Source: Candidatus Hadersleviella danica (GTDB lineage: Bacteria; Chloroflexota; Anaerolineae; Promineifilales; Promineifilaceae). From it: a stretch of DNA of 16,632 nt. Position 1 is the stretch's first letter; every line of letters starts with the position of its first letter. The notes below the pieces were generated by a model. The model worked only from the letters and a program-made list of their open reading frames with translations, was not told where the DNA came from and made no database searches. Made by a program: the position numbers and the translations under genes. Below are positions 376 through 13,900 of this stretch, piece after piece. The stretch lies in contig JADJSZ010000094.1 of NCBI GenBank assembly GCA_016711405.1, forward strand, positions 1 to 16,632, in the 5' to 3' direction.

Positions 376-391
376 CTGAACTTTCTGAACT
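376..391. repeat. CTGAACT-tt-CTGAACT direct repeat (9-bp phasing). Further copies at 472-478, 4976-4982 (opposite strand), 5230-5236/5239-5245 and 5337-5343
   Basis: Read directly from the sequence. All copies lie in the two non-coding regions and overlap the predicted -35 or spacer elements. Confidence 0.5.
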
Positions 392-461: not shown

Positions 462-490
462 TTTACAAATCCTGAACTATTCTATACAAT
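462..490 (+). promoter_or_regulatory. putative sigma70-type promoter for the packaging operon (-35 TTTACA 462-467, 17-nt spacer, -10 TACAAT 485-490)
   Basis: Hexamers found by eye in the AT-rich divergent region. The spacer contains a CTGAACT copy (472-478). Confidence 0.3.
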
Positions 491-540: not shown

Positions 541-1254
541 GTGTTGGGTCACATCGCCCCACTTCCTATGCCACGGCCGACCTTTTTAGGCGGCCGTTTC
601 TTTTCCCCACACCCTATGGCAGATGCAGGGCGACCCCCCACCATAACCGATGACAGAATACTCAAGCGACTGCTTGAGGCGTTTGAGTGGGGCATGAACC
701 AAAAGGACGCGGCAAGGTACGCGGGCATTGCGCCCCAAACGCTATCGGCCGCGTTACGGCGCGGCCGTGAAGCGGACGAAGAAATGGCCGAGGGCGGGGC
801 GCGGGCTGGCAAAAAGCCGCTTACCAAAGATTGGCCATATGTGAGTTTTTACAGGCGGGTGGGGGAGGCGCGGTCAGTGATGGCGGCGCAAGCGGGGAAA
901 GCGGCCGTGAAACTGCTCAAGGGCGGCCGTAAGGTGACTGAGGTCACAACCGAGATTTACAGCATCATGGAAGCGGGGGAGGGCAAAGAACCCGTATTCG
1001 TGAAAGTAAAAGAGACGCGGGAAAGGCGGGTAGAAGAGTTACCCCCCGATTCGGCCATGACCCGCTTTGTCTTACAGCACAATTGGGGCAAGAGCGACGG
1101 CGCAAGCACGGCCGAAAGCGAGGGCGAGGGCGACACCATCAGCCCCGAACAGGCCGAGCAAGCCATGCAGAAACGGGCGGTGCAAGCGTTCGACGCTTTG
1201 CACTTGTTTGACGGCCTTGTGGAAGGGCAAGGGGAGGATGATACCTATGAGTAG
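541..1254 (+). CDS. terminase small subunit (putative). The start is uncertain: GTG at 541 with an AGGGG Shine-Dalgarno, or ATG at 616
   Basis: N-terminal HTH-like segment 'DDRILKRLLEAFEWGMNQKDAARYAGIAPQTLSAALRRG'. Acidic C-terminus. Its stop overlaps the start of the large terminase (ATGAGTAG). Position is immediately upstream of terL. Confidence 0.55.
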   Translation: MLGHIAPLPMPRPTFLGGRFFSPHPMADAGRPPTITDDRILKRLLEAFEWGMNQKDAARYAGIAPQTLSAALRRGREADEEMAEGGARAGKKPLTKDWPYVSFYRRVGEARSVMAAQAGKAAVKLLKGGRKVTEVTTEIYSIMEAGEGKEPVFVKVKETRERRVEELPPDSAMTRFVLQHNWGKSDGASTAESEGEGDTISPEQAEQAMQKRAVQAFDALHLFDGLVEGQGEDDTYE

Positions 1255-2702
1255 CCAACCACGAACCCCCACCAAACGCTTCCTGTTTCTGACCCAGCAC
1301 CTTGACTTGCCCCGCGCTTCGGGCGTTGACGATGCCCAATGGGAGCATTTTCAAGTGGCTCATTTGTGCGACGATGGGCAGTTCAGGATAGAGGACAAGA
1401 GCCGCCAAATTGCGTGGTCTTTTCTGGTGGCAATGGAAGCCACGGCCGAGGCCATTCTGGAAGGGCAAAGCTCCGTTTTCGTCTCTATCAATCTCGAGGA
1501 GGCCAGCGAAAAAATACGCTATGCCAAATCAGTTTTAGAGAACATCCAAAACTACAGGCTCCCCCAAATCATCCGCGACAACACTTTCGGCCTCGAGTTT
1601 GACAACGGGGCGCGGATTATGTCCCTGCCCTCGAGGGAGCCACGCGGCAAGGCGCGGATGAATGTCTACCTTGACGAGTTTTGTCACATCATGCGGGATA
1701 GGGCGATTTACTCAGCGGCCTTACCCATGATAAGCAAGGGCGGCCGTTTGCGGATTGGTTCAAGCCTGATGGGAGCGAGTGGGCAACATTGGGAAGTCAG
1801 CCAACAACGGTTACGGCCGTATCCGGGCTACACCCGCTCCGTAACCCCGTGGTGGAAAGTCAAGGCGTTTTCCAACGACGTGCGGACGGCTTACCAGCTT
1901 GCGCCCGAACATGCCCACGGCCGAGCGGGTGGAACGATTCGGCAACCAGCGCATTCGGGCAATTCACGACAACATGCACAGCGAAGATTTTCAACGCGAG
2001 TATGAATGTGTGTACGTGGACGAAACCAGCGCATGGTTCCCTTGGGAGGAGATTCAAGCCATTCAACAGCCCTCCCTCTACACGATTACGGCCGATACAC
2101 GGGGCGAAGCGGTGAGCAAGGCCATGAACGCCATAGCTGAGTTGAAAGCGGCCGTGACGCGGGGCGTGGTGGAAACGGCAATGGCCGTGGGCATAGACGT
2201 AGGGCGCACCCGCAACGCCACTGAAATCTTTGTGGTTGGTTGCACCACAACCGATACCTACCCCTTGCGCCTGACCCTCACCCTTGAAAATGCCAGTTTC
2301 GACACCCAGCTTGCGGTAGCGGCGGCCGTGTTCGACACCTTGCCCATTAAGAAAGGGTACATAGACCAGAACGGTATCGGCCGTAACCTTGCCGAGCGGC
2401 TCGAGAAACGCTTCCCCAGCAAGGTTGAGGGCGTGGATTTTACGGTGCAATCTAAAACGGTTTGGGCGACTGATGCAAAAATGCTTGCCCAACAACTCAA
2501 GGCCATTATCCCCGCTAACAGGGACTTGGCTTACCAGATTCATTCAATTAAGCGCACGATAACGGGCGCGAAAAACATGGTTTTCGACACCGACCGCACC
2601 GAAAAGCACCATGCCGATAAGTTTTGGGCATGGGCGTTGGCTCTTTCGGCCGCACGGGTCAAGGTCATGGTTCCTCGAGAATTTTCTAATCCAAGGCGGT
2701 GA
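1247..2702 (+). CDS. terminase large subunit (lambda gpA / Terminase_6-like), interrupted by an apparent +1 frameshift between about 1845 and 1905. Segment 1247..2005 is in frame 2 and 1845..2702 in frame 0
   Basis: The N-terminal half has the deviant P-loop 'DKSRQIAWS' (compare lambda gpA KSARVGYS) and a Walker B 'MNVYLDEF'. The C-terminal half has 'FQREYECVYVDE' and nuclease-domain acidic motifs 'AVGIDVGRT', 'GYIDQNGIG' and 'HHADKFWAWA'. The two halves are in different frames; frame 0 opens at 1845, directly after a TAA, at a CCCC run. The combined length is about 485 aa. SD GGAGG lies upstream of ATG 1247. Confidence 0.8.
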
Positions 2703-2706
2703 CAAG

Positions 2707-4144
2707 ATGATTGAAATTACAAAAGAGATGGATAAGCGGCTGATGGGCATGATAATGGGCGAAGTGGCCAATTACATGCAATCGGTTGCGCCCACTTTGA
2801 GCCAACGGCCGAAACTGGCCGCCATGCAATCCATTGGTGGCTACACGGGCGGGGCGATAAACCGCACAACGCACGGCGGCGATAGGGAGATTGATACCGT
2901 GCTGGGGCGCACAGCAACCGATTCGGCCACGTTTGATGTGTTTATGACGTGGTTCAAGCGCGACCCCGTGGCCAATGCCATGATTAGCAAGCCCGTATCG
3001 GCCACATGGCGACGGCCGCCCCAAATTACCGACGGGGATGCAAACGATACCCCGTTTTGCAAAGGCTGGAAGCAATTGGTCAAGCAAAAGAAGATTTGGA
3101 CAACGTTCCCCCGCCTTGACCGCCTCGCCATGTTGGGCAAGTACGCGGTTTTGCTCATTGGCTTTTCAGATGTCAAGAGCGACGCGGATTTAGCCACGGC
3201 CGTTAAGGAAAAGCAATTCAAGCGCGGTTTGGACGATGTCTACTTTTTGCGGCCGTATGGCGAAGACCAGATTAAGAAGATAACGAACAATGTTGACCCT
3301 TCCAGCCGTCGCTATGGCTTGCCCGAAACCTACACCCTCGTTGAAAGCATTGTCGTTTCCAGTGACGCGGCTCCTACCACCAAAGAGATAGATGTGCATT
3401 GGAGCCGTATCATTCACGCGGCCGATAGCACCATGCAAAGCGGCCTTGGAGGGGATTCCCTTTCTCTTGCCCGTCTTAGATGACCTCGAGGATTTGGCCA
3501 AGACCATTGGCGGCGCGGCTGAATCGGTTTGGCGGGCGAGTGGGCAAGATATTGTCATGGCCATGAATGAGGGCTATGAGTTCCCCACCGAAGCCGCCCG
3601 CGAAGATTTTACCGAGCAATTGCGCGACCGTGTCAATCAGCTTGTGCGGTCAATTATCACTACAGGCGGCAATCCCCAAATCGTTCACGCCACGGCCGTT
3701 GACCCGACGGGCATTGTGACCGCCATTTACAAGCGGCTTTCGGGCTACAGTGCCATCCCCTTGCGTATTCTGTTAGGGAGCGAGGCGGGGCGGCTGGCCA
3801 GTGACCAAGACGAAGGGAATTGGGCGGCGCACATTGCGGCGCGGCAAGTGGAGTATGCGGAGGATAGTATCTTGCGGCCGTTCATTGACCAGATGGTTTA
3901 CACGGGGGTATTGCCCGCGCCTGAGAGCGACGAAGGCTACGACGTGGGCACGTATGACCCCAAACACGACGCATGGATTTGGCCGAGCATTGAAGAAGCC
4001 AATGAAATGGAAAAAGCCGAAATTGCGGACAAGCGGGCGAGTGCCATGCAGAAAGCGGCCGATGTCGCGGCCGTCAACGGTTCCTTGGATGACAACGACG
4101 TGCGCGGCTTTGGCGGCTTGCCCCCCCGCGAAGATGAGGCGTAA
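2707..4144 (+). CDS. portal protein (probable; DUF1073 / HI1409-like by gestalt and position), interrupted by an apparent +1 frameshift near 3449-3453 (GGGG). Segment 2707..3483 is in frame 1 and 3392..4144 in frame 2
   Basis: It sits directly downstream of terL (stop 2702, ATG 2707 with a GGTGA Shine-Dalgarno). The two consecutive ORFs together give about 479 aa. The C-terminal part 'SAIPLRILLGSEAGRLASDQDEGNW...ILRPFIDQ' and 'GIPFLLPVLDDLEDLAKTIGGAAE' resembles portal C-terminal regions. The assignment rests on gene order and motifs, not on a search. Confidence 0.6.
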
Positions 4145-4147
4145 CCC

Positions 4148-4897
4148 ATGCCCACGCCTGACCTCTCATTCACCCCGCCCAACGACGGCGAAATAGCGGC
4201 CGATGTGCGCCAATCGTTTGCCCGTGTGGAAACGATTGGCCGCGTCATGGCTCTATGGGGCAAGTACGCCTCGTTGAAAGACTTGCCCCGCTATCCGCTC
4301 GACCCGCAAACGGGGCAATTCGTGCAACCAAACGGCCGCTTGCTCCCCTTTGCCGTGGTTCGTGCCAATGTGCAACGGCTGGCCAATGGCGTAGGGCGGG
4401 GCGAATTGGGGGAGATGACCAAGCGGCTCCAAAAGGGCAACGTGCCCCTTGCCGAGTGGTACAGCACCATGCGCGATACCAGCCGTGACGCTTATTTAGC
4501 GGCCGTGCTGGTTGCCTTGGGCGGGATTAGCCGACTGACCGCCACAACGCCCCAAGCGTGGGAGGGGGTGTACCAGCTTGCCGAGTTTCAAGAGCGCAAG
4601 CTCAGGGATATGGCCGTGGATTTGCAACGGGATTGGGAGGGGAAAAACACGGCCGCTTACAGCCGGGCAATCATGTACGGCGCGGCCGTGTATGGCGTGT
4701 TTGGCAACAGCAACCGCTTCTTAATGGACATTTTGGGCTTTAACCAAGAGCGGCGGGTGTTGGCTCCAGCCGAGCATTGTACCGATTGTGTGGGCTATGC
4801 CAGCGTGGGCTGGCGGCCGATAAATTCACTCCCCCCCATTGGCGATAGCAAGTGCCTATCCTATTGCCATTGCAGTTTTAGATTTAGGCGGGTGTAA
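4148..4897 (+). CDS. head morphogenesis protein, phage Mu F / SPP1 gp7 family (minor capsid protein)
   Basis: Position after the portal. C-terminal signature 'EHCTDCVGYASVGW...PPIGDSKCLSYCHCSF' matches the C-x2-C ... PP ... C-x3-C-x-C motif of Mu-F-like proteins. 'LAEWYSTMRD' lies in the core. Confidence 0.7.
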   Translation: MPTPDLSFTPPNDGEIAADVRQSFARVETIGRVMALWGKYASLKDLPRYPLDPQTGQFVQPNGRLLPFAVVRANVQRLANGVGRGELGEMTKRLQKGNVPLAEWYSTMRDTSRDAYLAAVLVALGGISRLTATTPQAWEGVYQLAEFQERKLRDMAVDLQRDWEGKNTAAYSRAIMYGAAVYGVFGNSNRFLMDILGFNQERRVLAPAEHCTDCVGYASVGWRPINSLPPIGDSKCLSYCHCSFRFRRV

Positions 4898-4917
4898 CTG
4901 GCCAGACTACGCCCGCC
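4887..4917 (+). terminator. hairpin overlapping the gp7 stop codon (stem GGCGGGTGTA / TACGCCCGCC, 11-nt loop), not followed by a U-tract. It may be a weak terminator or an RNA-stability element
   Basis: Inverted repeat read from the sequence. The missing T-run is why confidence is low. Confidence 0.2.
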
Positions 4918-5228
4918 TCCCATATATAGATTGTTCCCCTGCTTGTTGCCGTTGTCACCTCCTTTTGCAGTGAAGTACAGTTCAGATTGTAGCACAAAAT
5001 AAACCAGTCTATGTCTATCAACCACTTAAACCCCCTGACCGCCTCCGATATTTTCAAGCGTGTAACCAATGCCGATAGCGGCCGTGCCTACATGGTGCAA
5101 GCTGACGTATGTGGTCATTGATGGGCAAATCATGGTGCAAACCGTCGCCCCCCACCGCTTCGAGATGAAACAAGGGGTAAGCATGTACGCCGTGTTGGGC
5201 GAGCTGACCGACGCGCTAAATCCTGCTC

Positions 5229-5258
5229 TTGAACTTTCTGAACCGACTGCGGTATAAT
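5229..5258 (+). promoter_or_regulatory. putative promoter P1 (-35 TTGAAC 5229-5234, 18-nt spacer, -10 TATAAT 5253-5258)
   Basis: Near-consensus hexamers. The -35 element and spacer are themselves built from a TTGAACT-tt-CTGAACC direct repeat. Confidence 0.35.
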
Positions 5259-5280
5259 CTTTTTTCAGTCTCCTCTCTGC

Positions 5281-5328
5281 GGCCGTTGGTTAGTGACCCA
5301 AAACTAGCCAACGGCCTATTTTTTTTGG
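5281..5328 (+). terminator. rho-independent terminator T1 (13-bp stem 5281-5293 / 5304-5316, 10-nt loop, then TATTTTTTTTTT)
   Basis: GGCCGTTGGTTAG ... CTAGCCAACGGCC is perfectly complementary apart from one G-U pair, followed by a 10-T run. It lies only about 20 nt downstream of the P1 -10 element. Confidence 0.7.
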
Positions 5329-5345
5329 CTATTTTTCTGAACTTC

Positions 5346-5374
5346 TTGACCTGTTTTTGATTTTCGTTTACACT
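5346..5374 (+). promoter_or_regulatory. putative promoter P2 (-35 TTGACC 5346-5351, 17-nt spacer, -10 TACACT 5369-5374), with a CTGAACT copy abutting the -35 element
   Basis: Hexamers and spacing read from the sequence. The predicted transcription start is about 5381. Confidence 0.35.
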
Positions 5375-5458
5375 ACTATGCGATAGGCAAATTGTTTGCC
5401 ACCAATCGAATAACACCAATTCCCGTTAGGCCGTGAATCGGCCGTCTACCACCCAAAA

Positions 5459-5502
5459 GGCGGGCACACAACCAAAAAGTGTTGTGTGCCCGCCTTTTTT
5501 TT
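5459..5502 (+). terminator. rho-independent terminator T2 (perfect 14-bp stem GGCGGGCACACAAC / GTTGTGTGCCCGCC, 8-nt loop, 8 Ts), ending 11 nt before the ATG of the scaffold gene
   Basis: Perfect inverted repeat plus TTTTTTTT, read directly from the sequence. Confidence 0.8.
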
Positions 5503-5512
5503 GTTTCCACCT

Positions 5513-6709
5513 ATGGAACCCGAACAAACAGGCGAATCCACAACCCCAGAGCAAGAGCAAACGGCCACCGAAACCCATGCGGCCGTCGCCCTTGCCGCGC
5601 CCGTCATGGTTAACCATGCCCTGCAAATCAACCGCGCCGCCATCCGCTACGAAGCGTTCAATGGCGACAACTTCATGGTTGCCCCGTTCGTGGGCGCGGT
5701 CGAAGGGGTAATGAACGGGGCACTGATTTTGGCCAGCGAGTTAGAGCAGAGCGCACCGCTCTACCCCGATAGCCCTGTTGTTGTAGGCCATCCCACGGTA
5801 AACGGTGCGCCTATCAGTGCCAAGGGTCAGCCCATCCCCAAAATCGGCCGGGTCTACAACACGGCCGTGGATGGTGACAGGTTGACGGGCGAGTTATGGG
5901 TGAGCCAACGCGCCGCCCAATCTGCCCCCCGTGGCCAAGAGGTACTAGACAACCTCGCTACGGGCAAGGTCAACGAAGTGAGTTGGGGCTGGTGGATGCA
6001 AGCCGAGCCAGCCCAAGGGGAGTTTAAGGGCAAGCCCTACGCCGTCATCGGCCGCAATTTTATCCCCGACCACTTAGCCATTTTGTTAGATGTGCCCGGC
6101 GCGTGTTCTGTAGCCGACGGCTGTGGAACGCTCCGAGCTAATCAAGCCCTGACCGTCAACTGCGATTGCGGTTGCTCTGGGCATGTCGTCAATCCCAATC
6201 CATCAATCACAGGAGAAAAAACTATGACGGGTAACACCCAAGTAGACGCTCCCATTGAAGAGGACGAGGTTGTTGACGCTGTGGAAACGAGTGGGGCGCA
6301 AATCCCCGCCCCGACTGCCCCAGCGCAACCCGATTCCGCTTCTTTGGAAGTGAACCAAGTGCAAGCGGTGAAAGCCGAGCTTGCCAAACTGGCTGATTCG
6401 TTTGCCAAAACAAATCAGTTGGTTGCCAACCAGAACAAGCTCATTGAAGAGCTGTTAGGCGAACGGAAAACCCAAAAGCAACAGGCGCGTGAAGCGCAAA
6501 TTGCTGAACTGGCCACCTACGCCAATCAGCCGTTCAGCGTGGCCACGTTGAAAACTTTCAGCGACGAAGCCCTTGCTGAACTCGAGGGCAAGTTCCGCCC
6601 CGCTTACATGGCGGGCATGGGCATGAGCATCAACGGCCGCACCACGACCGCTGACCCCAACATGGGCTATGCGCCCGCCGCGCCCTATCTCTTTGGGGAG
6701 GTGAAGTAA
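5513..6709 (+). CDS. putative scaffolding / prohead-protease-like protein (DUF2213-like gestalt)
   Basis: Acidic Pro/Glu/Thr-rich N-terminus. A central domain ('VSWGWWMQAE', 'FIPDHLAILLD'). A Cys cluster 'CSVADGCGTLRANQALTVNCDCGCSGH'. A low-complexity Pro/Ala linker. A C-terminal coiled-coil-like Ala/Glu/Lys/Gln region typical of scaffolds. It lies just upstream of the capsid gene. There is no Shine-Dalgarno; the start codon follows T2. Confidence 0.5.
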   Translation: MEPEQTGESTTPEQEQTATETHAAVALAAPVMVNHALQINRAAIRYEAFNGDNFMVAPFVGAVEGVMNGALILASELEQSAPLYPDSPVVVGHPTVNGAPISAKGQPIPKIGRVYNTAVDGDRLTGELWVSQRAAQSAPRGQEVLDNLATGKVNEVSWGWWMQAEPAQGEFKGKPYAVIGRNFIPDHLAILLDVPGACSVADGCGTLRANQALTVNCDCGCSGHVVNPNPSITGEKTMTGNTQVDAPIEEDEVVDAVETSGAQIPAPTAPAQPDSASLEVNQVQAVKAELAKLADSFAKTNQLVANQNKLIEELLGERKTQKQQAREAQIAELATYANQPFSVATLKTFSDEALAELEGKFRPAYMAGMGMSINGRTTTADPNMGYAPAAPYLFGEVK

Positions 6710-7144
6710 ATGACTACCACAACGGGTAATCCCTACACCATTTTCCTGACAGGCCGCGACCGCACCGTTTTTGACGAAGTGGCCGTGACCGATGCCGTGG
6801 TTAAGCCCGGCATGTTCTTGGCTCGCACAGCCACAGGCGCACGGCCGCAAAACGTAGCCGCCGCCGCCGCTCCCTCGCTGGTTGCCACCGAAGCCACCGT
6901 ATTCGAGGGCACGATTGAAACCGAATTAGCCGTGGGCGAACGGGTTCAGTTTGGCAACGCCTCGGGTTGTCACGTCTACGCCATCTTGCTTTCGGGCGAG
7001 AACGTGGCCGCTGGTGCGAAGTTGACCCACGACGGCACGGGCAAATTGGCCGCCCTCGGGGTTGACGAAGTTTGGATTGCGACCGCCTTAGAAGCGGTAG
7101 ACGCAAGCGCGGCGGATAAACGAATCCGCGTGGAGGTGCTGTAA
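6710..7144 (+). CDS. small head-associated protein (possibly a decoration or auxiliary capsid protein), 144 aa
   Basis: GGAGGTG Shine-Dalgarno. The start overlaps the upstream stop (TAAATG). It lies between the scaffold and the major capsid gene. Function is inferred from position only. Confidence 0.45.
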   Translation: MTTTTGNPYTIFLTGRDRTVFDEVAVTDAVVKPGMFLARTATGARPQNVAAAAAPSLVATEATVFEGTIETELAVGERVQFGNASGCHVYAILLSGENVAAGAKLTHDGTGKLAALGVDEVWIATALEAVDASAADKRIRVEVL

Positions 7145-7146
7145 CC

Positions 7147-8136
7147 ATGAACGCTGAATTTGCAACCATTGAACTGGTGTCCCAATTGGACATCAACAAA
7201 ATGCGCCCCATCGCTGGCTTCCATGCCAACGCGCTTTTGCGGCAAGACGATTGGCGCACGATTGACGACGCGGTCGTGAAAGTCGCTCGCCAAAACCTGA
7301 GTGTTTTGGATGACCTCGCCCGTTTCGGCCTTGTACGGCCGCCCGCTGGTTTGGGGCTGATGTTCAGTTCCTACGAACAACAAAGCGAACTGACCACGGC
7401 CAACGTGGACATGGCGGCCGACACCCGCGCCGAAATGTCCAACCTCAACCACACGACCATCAACATTCCTGTGCCCATCATCCACAAAGAGTTTTCTCTG
7501 AACGCTCGGGTGCTGATGAATAGCCGCATGAACCGCATGGAAGGGTTGGACGTTAGCCACGCCGAAAGCTCTGCCCGGCGCGTGGCCGAAGCCATCGAGG
7601 ACATGATTATCAACGGCGTTTCGTTGACCGTGAACGGTTCCACCATTCAGGGCTTGACCAACGCTACCAATCGTGTCACCGACACCGCTACCAACTTTGG
7701 CGGCGGGGCGTGGAGTACGGCGGGGAACGCCTACAAAACCATCAACGGCATGATTGCTGGCATTGAAAACAAAGGTTTCTATGGCCCTTATGGGGTCTAC
7801 GTGGCCAACAACTTGTGGAGCAAGCTCCGCAATCTGATTAGCACCGAATCGGGCAAGTCTGAAATGGCCGCCCTCATGGAAAACCTTGGTTTGGCCACAG
7901 GCGGGCAAGTCGCCTACGTCAAGCCCTCCCGCTCCCTTGCCGCTGGCACGGCCGTCTTGTTCCAACTCACCAGTGATGTCATTGACATTGCCACGGGCGT
8001 TGGCATGACCACCGTCCAATGGGAAGAGCAAGGCCGCTTGACCAGCAATTTCCGCGTCATGGCGGCGATGGCGCCTCGTGTCAAGTACGACGCTTCCAGC
8101 AATTGCGGTGTGGCTCATGCCACAGGTGCGCTCTAA
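7147..8136 (+). CDS. major capsid protein (HK97-fold, DUF2184 / encapsulin-like type, inferred)
   Basis: 329 aa. Strong GGAGGTG Shine-Dalgarno. It lies immediately after the scaffold and small head protein. The composition and length are typical of this MCP class. The long antisense ORF 6976..8118 covering it is low-complexity and rejected. Confidence 0.7.
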   Translation: MNAEFATIELVSQLDINKMRPIAGFHANALLRQDDWRTIDDAVVKVARQNLSVLDDLARFGLVRPPAGLGLMFSSYEQQSELTTANVDMAADTRAEMSNLNHTTINIPVPIIHKEFSLNARVLMNSRMNRMEGLDVSHAESSARRVAEAIEDMIINGVSLTVNGSTIQGLTNATNRVTDTATNFGGGAWSTAGNAYKTINGMIAGIENKGFYGPYGVYVANNLWSKLRNLISTESGKSEMAALMENLGLATGGQVAYVKPSRSLAAGTAVLFQLTSDVIDIATGVGMTTVQWEEQGRLTSNFRVMAAMAPRVKYDASSNCGVAHATGAL

Positions 8137-8147
8137 GGGGGTGACGT

Positions 8148-8480
8148 ATGGCTGACCAACTTTACAAAGTGCGTGAGGGTAAGCGGTTTGGGGCGTTTGA
8201 CCAGTACGAAAGTGGCGACACCGTGGTACTGGACGAACTCGCGGCCGTGCCCTTCCTCGACAAGTTGGAACCTGTCACCCCAGAAACAGGGGCGGGTAAC
8301 TCTGCCCCTGTTGACCCGCCCTCTGACACGCTCCCCAGCGGCTTTCCCCACGCCACGAAGTTAGCGGCCAGTGGCTACACCACGGTTACGGCCGTGCGGT
8401 CAGCTACCGACGCGCAACTCATTGCCCTCAAAGGCATTGGCGAAAAGGCCGTTGTTGAAATTCGTGAGGCATTGGCTTAA
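8148..8480 (+). CDS. hypothetical head-module protein with a C-terminal helix-hairpin-helix motif ('LIALKGIGEKAVVEI')
   Basis: GGGGGTGA Shine-Dalgarno. 110 aa. The G-I-G hairpin with flanking hydrophobic helices is an HhH signature. Confidence 0.55.
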   Translation: MADQLYKVREGKRFGAFDQYESGDTVVLDELAAVPFLDKLEPVTPETGAGNSAPVDPPSDTLPSGFPHATKLAASGYTTVTAVRSATDAQLIALKGIGEKAVVEIREALA

Positions 8481-9272: not shown

Positions 9273-9741
9273 AGAAGCCGCCTTAATCGCCCTCCGCAAT
9301 ATGATTCGCGCCGCTGGCACGGCTCCCTTGTCCAACTTGGGGCAACGGGTGTGGGTTCAGTCAGAGGATTACACCTCTGTTTCCATCGCCACTTACCCCT
9401 TTTGCCTTGTGAACTATGCCATTGGCGAGGATTTTCCCGTGCGGAAAGCGGCCTTGAACGGCCGTTACACCTACGAATGGCTTGCCCAAGTCTACTTTGC
9501 CGTTGGCTCGGCCGATGTGGGCTATCCCAGCTCCGCCTTTGCCGCCGCACAACAAGCCAGCAAAGCATACCCACGGGCGTTGTTAAGCCTTTTGGCGGCC
9601 GATACGACCAAGTGGGCGGGCACGATTCACGCGCTCGGCAACACAAATTACTACTTACGCGACAACTTCACAATTTGGGAATGGGACGGCAATGTACTGC
9701 TCGGCCAAATGGTTGAGATACCCGTCACCCAATTCTTTTAG
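9265..9741 (+). CDS. hypothetical tail completion / neck protein
   Basis: The ATG overlaps the upstream stop (ATGGATAA). 158 aa. It directly precedes the major tail gene. Confidence 0.5.
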   Translation: MDKEAALIALRNMIRAAGTAPLSNLGQRVWVQSEDYTSVSIATYPFCLVNYAIGEDFPVRKAALNGRYTYEWLAQVYFAVGSADVGYPSSAFAAAQQASKAYPRALLSLLAADTTKWAGTIHALGNTNYYLRDNFTIWEWDGNVLLGQMVEIPVTQFF

Positions 9742-10926: not shown

Positions 10927-13900
10927 CGAAAAAGACACCTTAGAGATAGAAGTCAAGGCCACGTTGCAAGGCGACGCGGCGTTCAAGTCTATTCTGAGTG
11001 ACCTTGAGAAAATCCGCAAAGAAGCGGATAAGGTCAAGCAATCGGCCGCTGGCATTGGCGGGGCGAGTGGGAGCATTAAGAGCGCGGCCACGGCCTTGGG
11101 CGAGGTTGAATCAGCCGCAAAAAAGGCGGGCAAGGGCGTAGGGGAAGCCGAAAAATCCACCGAATCAGCAGGTAGCGCGTTTACCAAAATGAGTGGGCTG
11201 GCCACGGCCGCATGGGCGGCGGCGGGCGCGGCCGTGACTGCGTTCGTGGTTGATTCGGTCTCCCAATTCATGGCCTTTGAGAAGGGCATGGCCGAAGTCT
11301 TTACCCTGTTGCCGGGCATATCAGGCGCGGCAATGGACGCAATGACGGCCGATGTGCGCGCCTTTGCCCTTGAATCGGGGCGACTGCCTGACGAAGTTGT
11401 GCCCGCCCTCTACCAAGCTATCAGCGCGGGCGTTCCCCAAGCCAACGTATTTGACTTTATGAAAGTGGCCAGCGACGCGGCTTTAGGCGGCGTGACTGAC
11501 CTCGAAACGGCCGTGGACGGTATCACGTCGGTGGTCAATGCGTATGGTTCAGAGGTAGTTAGCGCACAACAGGCCAGTGACATCATGTTCACGGCCGTTA
11601 AGCTGGGCAAAACCGACTTTAGCCAATTATCCGCCTCCCTCTTTAATGTCATCCCCACGGCCGCCGCCTTGGGCGTTTCGTTTGAGGACGTAGCGGCGGG
11701 GTTAGCGGCCGTGACTGCTCAGGGCACACCTACCAGCGTCGCCACAACCCAAATGCGGCAACTGTTTGTGGAACTGAGTAAGGAAGGGGGAAACACCAGC
11801 CGCATCTTTAAGGAAATAGCGGGCGTAGGCTTTAAGGAATTTTTAGCGCAAGGCAACAGTCTACAGGACGGCTTGCAACTCCTTGAAGAGTACGCCGCCA
11901 AAACCAACGTTGGTATCAACGACCTCTTTGGTTCGGTGGAGGCGGGCAGTATCGCCCTTGGTTTGACAGGGCAAGGGACTGAGAAATTCACGGCGGCCGT
12001 GCAAGAGTTTGGCAACGTGACGGGCGCAACAGGGCGGGCGGCCGATTTGATGGGCGAAACCACGGCGCAATCAATGGCGCGGGCAAGCGCGGCCGTCAAC
12101 GAACTCAAATTGATGTTGGGCGAATCACTCGCCCCTGCTTTGGCACAAACGGCCGAAGCTGTGTTAAGCCTTGCCAACATCGCCCTCCCTTGGCTGGCAA
12201 GCAACTTGAACAAGTGACCGTTGACAGGCGCGTTTGCCGACGGCATGAGCATCATAGCGGGTGAAAGCGAAGCTGTGGAGCGAACCGTAGCAGGTGTGGC
12301 CAATGTGGTAGGCGACAACGCGCTTTCGGCCGCTGAAAAGATGGCGCAATTGGACGCGGCCATTAGCAACGCGGGCACGGGCGGCCGTGTGTTTGGCCAC
12401 GCTGAAGAGATTGAAGCGGGCATGGTGCAGGTGGCTAAGGCCGTTGTCACGGGTGCAACCTCTTACGAAGATGCAATTGCCCGCATGAAAGAAGCGGGAT
12501 TCGAGATGGACGCGGAGGGCATGAGCTTTACCAGCCCTCACGAATGGGAAGCGTTTCAAGCGGCATGGGCACAAGTGGAGCAGGGCGCGGTCTTTTCGGC
12601 CTCCCAAGTCATGTCCCGCCTTGTGGACGTGAGCGGGGCGTATGCCCACACGGGCAAAGAAGCCGATGACGCGGCCGTGTTTATCACCGACTTGACCGAG
12701 GAGTTGGAAAAGAACGGCCGTGCTTACGAACAAGCGACTGAGGCCACGGCCGCCAATGAGCAGGTCAACGAACGCATTGCCAAGGTCAATGAAGCCGCGT
12801 TAAGCACCAGCGAAGCCAAAAACCAATTACTGAAAGAGGAAGCCCTAAGCGCGGGCAAAACGGCCGAATCCATTGCCGAATACGAAGCGGCAACCAAAGC
12901 GGCTTTGGCCGCTACACAGGCGTTTGTGCGGGATTCGACAGGCGCGTTTAACAAGTCGGGCAACATCTTTGGCGACGCTTTCCAAGAGCTTGAAAAGGCC
13001 GAAAACGCGCAAATCAATCTGAACGCGGGCACGGTATGGGCGTACAACCAAGCCTCTAAAGAAATAACCGAAATCAGCGGCCAATTAGCGGCCGATTTGA
13101 GCGAAGACCAGCAAAAAGCGTTCCAAGAAATCTTGGGCACGGTAGAGGAAGGGTCAGCCGAATGGCTGAGCGCCTACAACGCTTTGCAAGGCGATTTAAG
13201 CGACAGTGCCCGGCAGGGTCTTGTGGCGCAAATGGCTGAATTGCAAGGGGAGGCAGGCGAGTTAGCGGGCGGCGGGTTAGAAGCGGTGTACGGGGCTGAC
13301 ACACGGGCGGCCGAAGAAGCCCGCGCCGCCATCGAGGAAGCCAATCAAGCCATCATTGCCAGTTACAAGGCGACCACGTTTGAGGCGTTGCTGGCTCAAA
13401 CGGGCGTGACCGAAAGCACGTTAGCTTTCGGGCGTTCAATTGGGCATTATGACCGAGGCAGAGGCGGCGGCGCGGCTCGAGTTTACCAATACCACCCTCG
13501 CCCTGACCACGCTGGCCAGCTCGCAAGAATTTGCGGCCGCTTCCACCCGTGACCAAGCGGAGGCCGCGCAACTGCTTATTTTGGGCTACGCCTCTTCAGC
13601 GGAGGAAGCGGCCACAATGGCGGCCTCCATATCCGACAAGGGCGGCTTATCCGAATCCCTGTTAGCGGCCACAAGCCAAACCGAACAACTGAATCTTGAA
13701 TTAGCCAAGCTCGAGGGCGACAAAGAAAGCAAGGTCAGCGTGAGCGTGGACGGCATTGAATCGTTGCGCGAAGCCGTAGGGCTGACCCAGCAAATGGCGG
13801 GCGGCGGGCGCAAAGACGGCGCGGCCACGGCCGCTTTGCCCGAAGCCCGTGCCGTGGGCGGGGACATCAGCGCGGGCAGTCCCCTACATGGTAGGGGAGC

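Follow-up and report, generated by a model that had tools for sequence, protein, structure and literature searches.

Several phage systems control transcription by placing a terminator shortly downstream of a promoter. The regulators Q and AlpA act where an intrinsic terminator follows a promoter (PMC9371919). After loading at the promoter, Q takes RNA polymerase (RNAP) through terminators (PMC9388147, PMC6606751), and the PR'-tR' transcript of Stx phages, StxS, is a functional small RNA (sRNA) (PMC7547250). Promoters also occur elsewhere within late gene clusters: morons, inserted into phage late operons, are autonomous units of promoter, gene and terminator (PMC3594210), and PI is a late promoter of phage Mu (PMC2582627).

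The stretch of DNA analyzed here (the window; 16,632 nt of contig JADJSZ010000094.1) carries a cassette composed of a predicted promoter (P2), a leader and a strong intrinsic terminator (T2), followed directly by the gene encoding a head-maturation protease/scaffold. This cassette probably blocks ordinary transcription into the scaffold and capsid genes, whose expression probably needs a terminator-override factor. Our preferred reading, to which we assign a probability of roughly 0.45, is that P2-leader-T2 constitutes a self-terminating non-coding unit gating the head genes by factor-dependent antitermination, similar to the λ PR'/6S RNA/tR' unit. The features of the locus are summarized in Table 1.

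Table 1. Features of the P2-T2 cassette, its surroundings and the terS region (window coordinates).
Feature	Position	Strand	Remarks
TGAACTTTCTGAAC	377..390	+	Same letters as the P1 motif; in the divergent regulatory region 5' of terS
terS-unit promoter, TTTACA-17 nt-TACAAT	462..490	+	10/12; conserved TGAAC in spacer
Terminator-like hairpin, ACGGCCGaCC/GGCGGCCGU plus U-rich tail	573..608	+	17 nt before the terS ATG (616), which lacks a Shine-Dalgarno (SD) sequence
Small conserved ORF	5011..5257	+	81-84 aa in relatives; window copy disrupted by one inserted nt near 5096
P1, promoter-like site, TTGAAC-18 nt-TATAAT	5229..5258	+	10/12; overlaps 3' end and stop codon of the small ORF
T1, second strong terminator	5281..5324	+	14-bp stem and U8; 3' of the small ORF and P1
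Direct repeat, TGAAC-N4-TGACC	5338..5351	+	Overlaps the P2 -35; putative phage-regulator site
P2, σ70-type promoter	5346..5374	+	-35 TTGACC (5346-5351), 17 nt, -10 TACACT (5369-5374)
Predicted non-coding transcript	5381..5502	+	~122 nt; begins GCGAUAGG; ends inferred from P2 and T2
Hairpin 1, GGCAAA-uug-UUUGCC	5386..5400	+	Specific to the window; outside the conserved element
GAAUA(A/C)CACCAAUUCCCGUUA	5407..5428	+	Near-invariant, single-stranded; candidate seed or factor-binding sequence
Hairpin 2, GGCCG/CGGCC	5429..5443	+	5-bp stem, variable loop
Linker from hairpin 2 to T2, GUCUACCACCC	5444..5454	+	Conserved; one change (G to U, L002) in four relatives
T2, strong intrinsic terminator	5455..5502	+	18 perfect pairs (14 G+C-rich and 4 A:U), 8-nt loop, U8
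U/C-rich spacer and ATG	5503..5515	+	No SD sequence; spacer GUUUCCACCU nearly conserved
DUF2213 head-maturation protease/scaffold gene	5513..6709	+	Pfam PF09979; PHROG 760, 530; first gene behind T2

T2 exceeds chance expectation by a wide margin as a terminator. The first-pass annotation had described it as a perfect 14-bp hairpin followed by eight Us; this G+C-rich stem is confirmed (5459-5494, T8 at 5495-5502), and with the flanking A:U pairs (5455-5498) the pairing even reaches 18 bp, with a hairpin energy of -32.5 kcal/mol. A stringent terminator scan of both strands of the 16.6-kb window returned T2 and T1 (5281-5316) as the sole matches, and when loops of up to 12 nt were allowed, the + strand terminators in the window were T1, T2 and the hairpin of the terS leader only. 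In related phages the U-run of T2 varies from 6 to 10 nt, and the copy of L002 contains one compensatory change (A-U to G-C).

P2 was found exactly where the first-pass annotation had placed it (TTGACC-17-TACACT), with a consensus score of 9/12 in the promoter scan of the window. The window contains 12 promoter-like sites against 7.8 ± 2.9 expected, so the match alone is not above chance. L001, L002 and L090 retain the two hexamers and their 17-nt spacing (the -10 of L002, TATACT, is nearer to the consensus), and among these contigs substitutions are restricted to the upstream half of the spacer, which is the least conserved part of P2. This pattern, in which hexamers and spacing are held while the spacer drifts, supports the prediction that P2 is a promoter. 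The only -10-like element that might act as a pause site is (T/C)AAATT at +8 to +13, agreeing at 3-4 of six positions.

The arrangement behind T2 agrees with what had been proposed from the letters alone. No + strand promoter-like site scoring at least 9/12 is present in the ~11 kb of the window 3' of position 5374, in keeping with the earlier view that the head and tail genes have no other obvious promoter, and these genes are indeed co-oriented, all large ORFs between 5513 and 16190 being located on the + strand. The scaffold ATG (5513) lies 10 nt past the T-run and, as claimed, lacks an SD sequence: no GGAGG-like sequence precedes it, while such sequences are present before the genes at 6710, 7147, 8148, 9754 and 10268. 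Since there is no room for a promoter before this ATG and none was found downstream, transcription of the head and tail genes must cross T2. The promoter and terminator scans thus support the proposal that expression of the capsid operon has to pass the terminator.

The cassette was found in four related phage contigs (L001, L002 and L090 among those compared). Close relatives were obtained solely through protein-cluster look-ups: none was detected by protease-protein scans of viral_contigs and genome_contigs, DNA similarity searches against 50,697 GenBank phage records gave no match, and an exact 20-mer of the leader was absent from metagenome_contigs and viral_contigs. Over the cassette (5337-5502), 17 of the 146 ungapped columns vary (11.6%), compared with 44.4% of third codon positions in the neighbouring gene (p = 1e-17) and 24% of all coding positions (p = 1e-4). 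The distal leader, with 8.9% variable columns, is comparable to second codon positions (10.8%), while the promoter-proximal region shows 15.8% variable columns and a 14-nt indel. On either side the cassette is bordered by variable sequence. Upstream, the T1 block is an indel; downstream, codons 1-31 of the protease gene are hypervariable (50.6% of columns), the distant protease homologues beginning near codon 32 (ATG 5606). In the four relatives the cassette thus stands out as an island of conservation. The cassette is real and, judged by its substitution pattern, under strong purifying selection. A covariance model built from the four relatives (R1) gave, beyond its sources and their palindromic T2 on the minus strand, weak matches (E = 0.0016 to ~7), the four best of which fall on generic terminators that L007, L029, L036 and L054 carry at the corresponding junction. 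The R1 search revealed no second copy of the cassette in the window.

The default product of the cassette is predicted from the P2-T2 layout to be a short RNA, as had been suggested (~120 nt), with a length of ~122 nt in the window versus ~105-110 nt in the relatives. Both small hairpins reported earlier are present at their positions and appear in the minimum free energy (MFE) fold of the window RNA. The description of the leader as structured is overstated: hairpin 1 occurs in the window only, and apart from hairpin 2, which is kept, the leader is unstructured. Hairpin 1 owes its existence to 14 inserted nucleotides that imperfectly duplicate the CACCAAT segment; L001, L002 and L090 lack this insertion. 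The stem and flanks of hairpin 2 are invariant across the four relatives, with loops of UGAAU, UCAGA, AGA and UGAAA, and the segment 5407-5428, with one variable column, is unpaired in all folds. For the whole RNA z is ~ -6 owing to T2; once the 3' arm of T2 is removed, shuffled sequences fold as well as the leader (z = -1.36). Covariation is weak and, with only four close relatives, not statistically established: all 24 pairs are paired, one of them with a compensatory change, a result equalled in 133 of 500 shuffles. In the relatives, frame-breaking indels (14, 2 and 1 nt) leave no conserved ORF on either strand, and a coding function of the cassette was accordingly ruled out. The scan for tRNA and tmRNA genes gave none in the window, and Rfam contains no family for the cassette (locally at E ≤ 10, over the whole window at the gathering threshold), its sole weak matches being miRNA-hairpin models that fit T2 as a generic hairpin. 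The DNA at 5225-5450 has a GC content of 41% versus 57-62% in the flanks. GGCCGTC-like repeats prompted a search for Neisseria DUS and Pasteurellaceae USS, of which there are zero copies. The region of hairpin 2 (GUUA-GGCCG-UGAAU-CGGCC-GUCUACCA) is laid out like a 28-nt class 1 repeat, but a role as a solitary repeat of an RNA anti-CRISPR is very unlikely, given that no CRISPR-DR model of Rfam matches and the loop length varies.

P2 is linked to regulation by the phage itself through a motif that it shares with P1 and with the regulatory region preceding terS. Three copies of TGAAC-N4-TGAMC, a pattern defined post hoc from two of its three sites, were found in the window (377-390, 5230-5243 and 5338-5351) against 0.07 expected, a count reached in none of 200 shuffles. 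In L091 and L002, KGAAC-N4-TGAMC occurs only upstream of terS and, in L002, also at P2; in these three sequences (T/G)GAAC-N4-TGAMC is therefore confined to P2, P1 and the pre-terS region. P1 itself is present in L001 and L090 and absent in L002, which also lacks the 71-nt block containing T1. The T1 hairpin of L001 shows a compensatory change from G-C to A-U as well as U.G to C-G, and the U.G pair is compatible with a + strand RNA only. The small ORF whose 3' end is overlapped by P1 was considered as a regulator candidate and rejected: it has no Pfam match and a single weak PHROG match of unknown function (E = 0.0044), and its AlphaFold model was unusable (pLDDT 49).

A second unit of the same layout precedes terS. 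It consists of a promoter, a leader of ~50-75 nt, a hairpin with a U-rich tail, and an ATG without an SD sequence 10-17 nt further on, and was seen in the window, in L091 and L092, and in the divergent L002. The promoter is conserved in L091 and L092 and takes the form TTGCAA-17-TAAAAT in L002, where the hairpin is perfect (15 pairs in the scan, 14 in the RNA fold), the bulged A being paired. Collinear alignment of the terS and P2 units scored better than 500 of 500 shuffles, while their local sequence similarity is not significant (830 of 1000 shuffles were as good), so that only the collinear layout is alike. The sequence AGCGGTAG, which opens the terS leader, is one mismatch away from the ops core; its position is not conserved in L002. 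The position of P2-T2 had been called unusual. It does lie between the packaging and capsid genes, but the equivalent unit occupies the canonical place 5' of terS (462-618), and distant phages carry strong terminators at the same junction as P2-T2.

In 72 non-redundant distant DUF2213 loci, the last 450 nt before the protease gene contain seven of the 22 strong + strand terminators, against 1.21 expected (p = 2.6e-4). L003 and L075 have a 10/12 promoter-like site ~25-35 nt before the hairpin and a start codon 8-23 nt after it, the junction of L007 contains a promoter, a 50-aa ORF and a terminator, and all three tRNA genes detected in 87 distant loci are at this junction. The recurrence of strong terminators, tRNAs and mini-transcription units before the protease gene provides a practical annotation rule for the large group of DUF2213 phages, and implies that late transcription in these phages may generally be terminator-resistant.

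In the gating mechanism that we favour, host RNAP would initiate at P2, near position 5381, and halt by default at T2, whose efficiency we infer from its sequence. Halting would release the ~122-nt RNA, whose conserved body is mostly unstructured and which also contains a single small stem-loop and the U-tailed terminator hairpin. Only terminator-resistant polymerase would reach the genes for scaffold, capsid and tail. As nothing in the leader competes with the T2 hairpin, the override would have to be trans-acting; a putative factor performing processive antitermination of the λ Q, 21 Q or AlpA type may load at P2, at the terS promoter further upstream, or at both. The terminated RNA may itself be a regulator, as is StxS. 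The layout of the terS unit points to two gates in this phage, which, if they are genuine, would require it to encode or recruit a processive antiterminator. No match to the Q, N or AlpA families was found among the tested ORFs of the window and of the L091 and L002 flanks. A 252-aa HTH_17 protein of L091 was rejected as an AlpA-like candidate, having no match among solved structures (PDB sequences). The motif at P2 also argues against gating in that it overlaps the -35, unlike the Q and AlpA elements, which are situated between -35 and -10. In addition, the tRNAs or small ORF with terminator found at the junction in other phages are inserted genes and not gates, and the distal leader is the most conserved part, so that an RNA with its own function fits better than a DNA loading site.

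This last point leads to the main alternative, possible but doubtful, which accounts for the greater part of these observations and in which the cassette is an autonomous gene for a trans-acting sRNA of ~110-125 nt (a non-coding moron) and P2 and T2 are merely its promoter and terminator. Single-stranded CACCAAUUCCCGUUA and ACCACCCAAAA would pair with host or phage mRNAs, the polymerase starting at P2 would never read on, and the head genes would be served from the terS promoter by terminator-resistant polymerase, with T2 acting just as an insulator. The architecture is that of Hfq-type sRNAs: the cassette has its own promoter, an unstructured conserved body (the unpaired, near-invariant 5407-5428 and 5444-5454), a small hairpin and a terminator ending in U6-U10. 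The constraint on the distal leader, comparable to that on second codon positions, the variable loop on an invariant stem and the low-GC island favour this reading as well, as does the junction being a hot spot for small independent genes (the tRNAs and the L007 mini-gene), and P1-T1, an indel among relatives, could be a second mini-RNA. However, an sRNA gene leaves unexplained both the likeness to the terS order of promoter, leader, terminator and SD-less ATG and the motif common to P2 and the main regulatory region. The cassette is in all four relatives and not sporadic, the L003 and L075 units hold just ~25-35 nt ahead of the hairpin, and in a target search within the window the best duplex was within the range of shuffled RNAs (absolute energies are unreliable, as DNA letters were given to an RNA routine).

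It is improbable that only the hairpins matter, with P2 fortuitous and T1 and T2 serving as transcript-end, processing or stability elements in one long late transcript. They might then protect the packaging mRNA at its 3' end, protect the capsid mRNA at its 5' end or offer it an RNase III site, or adjust stoichiometry by partial termination. In T7-type phages, long perfect hairpins that separate gene blocks are known to serve in processing and stability, and in the window the hairpins are the statistically exceptional features, promoter-like matches not being enriched. Such a role does not account for the conservation of the whole of 5337-5454, with its hexamers and spacing kept and the leader so little variable. 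T2 is moreover a fully canonical terminator, a G+C-rich stem followed directly by U8, and cutting transcription before the most-needed proteins, scaffold and capsid, is the wrong direction for stoichiometry. Control in cis by the leader RNA, whether a put-like, nut-like or riboswitch element that makes polymerase resistant or turns T2 off, we regard as highly improbable. The order of promoter, conserved RNA and terminator suits this class, and hairpin 2, flanked on either side by conserved linear sequence, is as large as a boxB (a stem of 5 bp, a loop of 3-5 nt). Yet no segment of the leader pairs with either arm of T2, whose 5' arm stays essentially unpaired once the 3' arm is removed, and this absence of a competing pairing makes a riboswitch or attenuator unlikely. 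Rfam gave no leader or riboswitch match at E ≤ 10, the best boxA match has 3/8 mismatches and ops fares likewise, and the loop, which in boxB is the part recognized by N, differs in all four close relatives. The attenuation switch and the put-RNA-like leader envisaged by the first-pass annotation therefore found no support; for the latter, folding gave one small conserved 5-bp stem-loop where put has two large ones, and the Rfam search no put match.

A broader version of the gating hypothesis would be that each morphogenesis block has its own gate of promoter and strong terminator, an unrecognised and widespread control of head genes, opened by a new factor other than Q or N or by the leader RNA in cis without put-like stems, the terminated RNAs doubling as regulators. 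It draws on the cassette, its terS twin and the non-homologous promoter-hairpin units of distant DUF2213-type phages, and we consider it decidedly improbable. Should gating of the head genes by P2-T2 be correct, a phage lineage known from metagenomes only would control its terminase and head genes via two promoter-proximal terminators, Q/AlpA-type control would extend beyond lambdoid phages, and 5337-5515 would be a defined fragment for use with candidate factors. If the cassette is instead an sRNA gene, it would represent an unusually well-conserved phage small RNA inside a structural module.

Among described systems, the cassette shares with HK022 put and λ nut a conserved RNA element between promoter and terminators, in which hairpin 2 is boxB-sized, but put comprises two adjacent large stem-loops (~65-70 nt) just past the promoter, which are absent here, while nut has a boxA (CGCUCUUA-like) followed by a boxB with a 5-bp stem and a conserved GNRA-like pentaloop, whereas here there is no boxA and the loop varies; the tested ORFs include no N-like arginine-rich protein. 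In Mu, the gene order has PI just in front of gene I (protease/scaffold) and behind the portal/F/G block, which is the place occupied by P2 here. A further likeness is the candidate factor-binding motif that overlaps the -35 region of P2. Mu late promoters have no -35 hexamer and depend on the activator C, while P2 has a good -35, and no leader terminator separates PI from gene I, in contrast to P2-T2. Like a moron, the cassette has its own promoter and factor-independent terminator between morphogenesis genes and a lower GC content, and some relatives have the neighbouring T1 block while others lack it; it differs in having no protein-coding gene, in occurring in all four relatives and in being more conserved than the flanking genes.

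The PalpB-tB unit of AlpA (Pseudomonas aeruginosa) likewise consists of a promoter and an intrinsic terminator, which a small HTH protein lets RNAP bypass, and the TGAAC in the spacer of the terS promoter (~-24 to -20) is at the position of the AlpA binding element (PMC9371919). No AlpA homologue was found here, the P2 motif overlaps the -35 instead of lying in the spacer, and tB is a weak terminator while T2 is very strong. The resemblance to λ PR'/qut/tR' noted in the first-pass annotation extends to the promoter-terminator layout but not to the regulator, as no Q-type gene was found in the window or the flanks of its relatives. The lambdoid PR'-qut-6S RNA-tR' unit has no sequence similarity to P2-T2 and is located 5' of the lysis and terminase genes, whereas P2-T2 separates the portal/minor-head genes from the scaffold gene; the separate terS unit does fit the lambdoid position. 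No Q-binding element was identified at P2, and its pause element is a weak candidate. Common to both are a σ70-type promoter, a strong intrinsic terminator within ~100-200 nt, a short default RNA and the placement of all morphogenesis genes behind the terminator. The proposed gate is thus a fresh instance of a known design rather than a novel type of switch.

The window carries a phage packaging, head and tail module, whose genes all lie on the + strand. The first-pass annotation had placed a promoter (P2), two leader hairpins, an intrinsic terminator (T2) and a start codon without a Shine-Dalgarno sequence ahead of the protease/scaffold gene, and each of these elements was found where it had been located. 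An A4:U4 extension lengthens T2 from 14 G+C-rich pairs to 18 perfect pairs (hairpin energy −32.5 kcal/mol). In a stringent scan, T2 and T1, a second terminator upstream of P2, were the sole terminators on either strand of the whole window; permitting loops of up to 12 nt added exactly one (573-597).

Features of the window and of corresponding regions in other contigs
Feature	Location	Strand	Remarks
TGAAC-N4-TGAMC copy	377-390		divergent region upstream of terS
terS promoter	462-490	+	10/12
terS leader		+	about 75 nt; contains 11-bp hairpin
terS terminator-like hairpin	573-598	+	ACGGCCGaCC/GGCGGCCGU, U-rich tail
terS	616-1254	+	ATG without Shine-Dalgarno, 17 nt past hairpin
terL	1067-2702	+	two reading frames
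portal	2611-4144	+	two reading frames
minor-head-like gene	4148-4897	+	249 aa
small ORF	5011-5257	+
62-aa ORF	5069-5257		NCBI protein, locus tag IPL28_25135
P1	5229-5258	+	TTGAAC-18-TATAAT, 10/12 promoter-like; overlaps small ORF stop codon
TGAAC-N4-TGAMC copy	5230-5243		at P1
T1	5281-5316, then T8	+	14 bp + U8; strong; 140 nt upstream of T2, directly 3′ of small ORF
TGAAC-N4-TGAMC copy	5338-5351		over P2 −35
P2	5346-5374	+	TTGACC, 17 nt, TACACT; 9/12 matches
hairpin 1	5386-5400	+	confirmed in sequence and fold
hairpin 2	5429-5443	+	confirmed in sequence and fold
T2 stem	5455-5498	+	8-nt loop; followed by T8
DUF2213 protease/scaffold	5513-6709	+	ATG without Shine-Dalgarno; GGAGG-type sites at several downstream genes
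decoration-like gene	6710-7144	+
major capsid protein	7147-8136	+	HK97-fold
head-tail and tail genes	to 16190	+
terS unit, L002	2813-2945
terS unit, L091	7420-7560, 9590-9740
terS unit, L092	76-232
tRNA-Trp, L011	4565-4638	+
tRNA-Met, L029	4594-4666	+
tRNA-Met, L054	4135-4209	+

No DNA similarity to GenBank phages was found for the window. Relatives gathered by protein look-ups comprised four contigs with the cassette region (the window, L001 of JGI 3300056999, L002 of SRR23285957 and L090 of SRR21146039) and two more covering the terS region (L091 and L092). Each of the four cassette contigs carries P2, the leader and T2. Among ungapped columns, 11.6% are variable in the cassette (5337-5502; 146 columns), compared with 44.4% at third codon positions (p = 1e-17) and 24.1% at all positions (p = 1e-4) of the adjoining 249-aa gene; the values are 10.8% for second codon positions, 8.9% for the distal leader (5401-5454) and 6.5% for T2. 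The P2 hexamers and their 17-nt spacing are invariant, substitutions falling in the spacer, except that the −10 of L002 (TATACT) is nearer consensus. The flanks are unconserved: the spacer at 4898-5010 is unalignable, and L002 lacks P1 as well as the 71-nt T1 block. Indels of 14, 2 and 1 nt break the reading frame and so leave no conserved ORF on either cassette strand. The cassette is genuine: a non-coding promoter-RNA-terminator unit that is strongly conserved.

On the downstream side, variability at protease codons 1-31 (5513-5605) reaches the level of neutral sites, with 50.6% of columns differing. This C/A-rich, G-poor stretch (GC skew about −0.25) has a 6-nt in-frame deletion in L002 and unrelated sequence in L090, distant homologues start at the codon 32 position (ATG 5606), and ATG 5513 is a putative start codon. 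Upstream, P1 and T1 form a second mini-unit (5229-5324), between whose elements lies an RNA of about 16 nt that is C/U-rich and anti-SD-like, UCAGUCUCCUCUCUGC. T1 has undergone a compensatory G-C to A-U change in L001, and one of its pairs, U.G, is compatible with the + strand RNA only; in L090 a 13-nt deletion shortens its U-run.

The proposed structured leader fared less well. Hairpin 1 is specific to the window and stems from a 14-nt insertion partly duplicating a CACCAAT segment, while hairpin 2 keeps its 5-bp stem with a loop of UGAAU, UCAGA, AGA or UGAAA. T2 contains one compensatory A-U to G-C change; covariation analysis of the cassette RNA covered 24 pairs, 100% of them paired, but the signal is formally weak, being equalled by 133/500 shuffles. 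Deprived of the 3′ arm of T2, the leader reaches only shuffle-level folding (z = −1.36); the high z-score of the full RNA (−6 to −7.6) is due to the terminator alone. The attenuator mechanism is unsupported, as is a riboswitch, because of this shuffle-level folding and because no competing pairing partner for the T2 arms was found in the leader; the Rfam search that had been advised gave no match. Neither boxA nor ops was found in the P2 leader, whose best −10-like element (+8 to +13) matches at only 3-4 of 6 positions. The cassette is not a riboswitch, attenuator or put RNA.

A twin unit precedes terS, whose start codon is backed at the protein level: the window and L002 sequences are conserved from the very first codons on (M-A-x-x-G-R-P). 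The unit is near-identical in L091 and L092. In L002 the region is only ~60% identical, yet the promoter is kept (TTGCAA-17-TAAAAT) and the hairpin is perfect (14- to 15-bp, with the formerly bulged A paired), the ATG following 10 nt later; the only two strong + strand terminators of this contig lie before terS and before the scaffold gene. Collinear alignment of the terS and P2 units of the window beats 500/500 shuffles; no significant local similarity between them was detected. The terS unit may be the main late-gene gate of the phage. The two predicted transcripts both start with GCGRTAGR exactly 6 nt past the −10, as GCGGTAGA (496-503) and GCGATAGG (5380-5387). With the preceding A, the terS start, AGCGGTAG, has one mismatch to the RfaH ops core GGCGGTAG; the copy in the terS leader of L002, GCGGTAGG, lies about 12 nt farther downstream.

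The motif TGAAC-N4-TGAMC, a pattern derived post hoc from two of its three window sites, occurs three times against 0.07 expected. It is confined in L091 to the duplicated terS-upstream region, with one site per copy (7347-7360, 9499-9512), and GGAAC-N4-TGAMC in L002 to the terS-upstream region and P2 (2738-2751, 7841-7854). In this phage group the direct repeat (T/G)GAAC-N4-TGAMC is restricted to promoter regions; an extra TGAAC in the terS promoter spacer (473-477) is kept in L002. A possible role of the repeat is that of an operator or activator site by which P1, P2 and the divergent terS-upstream region are linked. It suggests that P2 responds to a phage regulator, and is treated as a lead only because its geometry relative to the −10 varies among sites.

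Several further features of these contigs were noted. At 1251-1263 the window lacks a 315-nt segment that in L002 (3614-3904) separates terS from terL and encodes an HTH protein of 96 aa (PHROG: antitoxin or transcriptional regulator with HTH). In L091 the entire divergent regulatory region and terS leader are duplicated (7300-7560 and 9470-9730), and the copies enclose an inserted gene for a 472-aa N6/N4 DNA methyltransferase and a terS-like fragment; the left arm of L091 encodes DHFR, dCMP deaminase/dUTPase, DUF5131, two further methyltransferases and a 252-aa protein whose C-terminal domain is HTH_17 (excisionase/AlpA-type). At its left end (1-138, − strand) the window encodes the truncated N-terminus of a DNA methyltransferase, including a DPPY motif (PHROG 67, E = 8e-17), and a 63-aa ORF of unassigned function (165-356, − strand) faces the terS regulatory region. 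Directly 3′ of the major capsid gene, a 110-aa gene (8148-8480) weakly matches helix-hairpin-helix and RNA polymerase alpha-CTD-like domains (PF14520, E = 1.6e-5; PF03118, E = 1.3e-3; both under curated cut-offs). Single-base insertions relative to all relatives interrupt terL, portal, the small ORF and the tape-measure gene (~1907, ~3448, ~5096, 12211-12221, ~13429, ~13881), and an in-frame stop (12215-12217) results from two deletions that compensate each other. The terL frameshift is absent from the close strain L092 and from L091, and that of portal from L091 and L001. Long-read assembly errors are the probable source of the frameshifts, more so than decay of a prophage; they perhaps fall at methylated sites, given that L091 carries three genes for DNA methyltransferases and that part of such a gene lies in the window.

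More distant phages were compared at 72 non-redundant loci with a DUF2213 protease 30-42% identical. Stringent scanning of these 594 kb gave 22 + strand terminators, seven of them within −450 to +30 nt of the protease match (1.21 expected; p = 2.6e-4), and two further ones at −462 and −790. The junction terminators end 8-33 nt ahead of the start codon. What precedes them differs: a 10/12 promoter-like site and then only about 25-35 nt (L003, L075), an 11/12 site and a 50-aa ORF (L007), or a tRNA gene (L011, L029, L054). These three tRNA genes, all on the + strand at the junction upstream of protease/scaffold, are the only ones in the 87 distant loci scanned; a strong terminator lies 3′ of the tRNA in L011 and L029, and L054 has one at −462 from the match. 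The junction therefore recurrently hosts small, self-contained transcription units of varied kinds, closed by a strong terminator. It is a hot spot for the insertion of small RNA genes, and head genes in the DUF2213 phage group are commonly reachable only through a terminator.

We robustly infer that the cassette works as a functional unit, that by default it yields a short non-coding RNA, and that head and tail expression needs polymerase ignoring T2, plus T1 for transcripts from upstream. Since no competing RNA structure exists, bypass of T2 would need a trans-acting factor. Our tentative preference (probability roughly 0.45), drawn from sequence comparison, is that polymerase starting at P2 would itself be converted to terminator resistance; in its favour are the terS twin, the motif that P2 shares with other promoter regions, and the mini-units of L003 and L075. 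That P2-T2 is solely a small-RNA gene, bypassed by polymerase modified upstream, is the chief rival reading and somewhat less probable. It is favoured by the distal leader being more strongly conserved, by the low GC content of the region (an island of 41% versus 57-62% around) and by the tRNA genes and small ORFs inserted at this junction. Two negative results count against both readings: family searches of the ORFs of the window and of the relatives' flanks revealed no antiterminator gene, and a duplex scan within the window found no RNA target.

The Mu late promoter PI is located ahead of the Mu protease/scaffold gene, a precedent that makes the position of the cassette less unusual than the first-pass annotation had held. 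PI is one of four late promoters of phage Mu (PMC2582627). The proposed logic of the cassette resembles that of lambda PR′-6S RNA-tR′ with Q and of AlpA antitermination, in which a trans-acting factor carries polymerase past a terminator (PMC9371919, PMC9388147); the terminated RNA of Stx phages is an sRNA, StxS (PMC7547250). A promoter-proximal terminator with a short RNA is a known design, and this variant of it is new.
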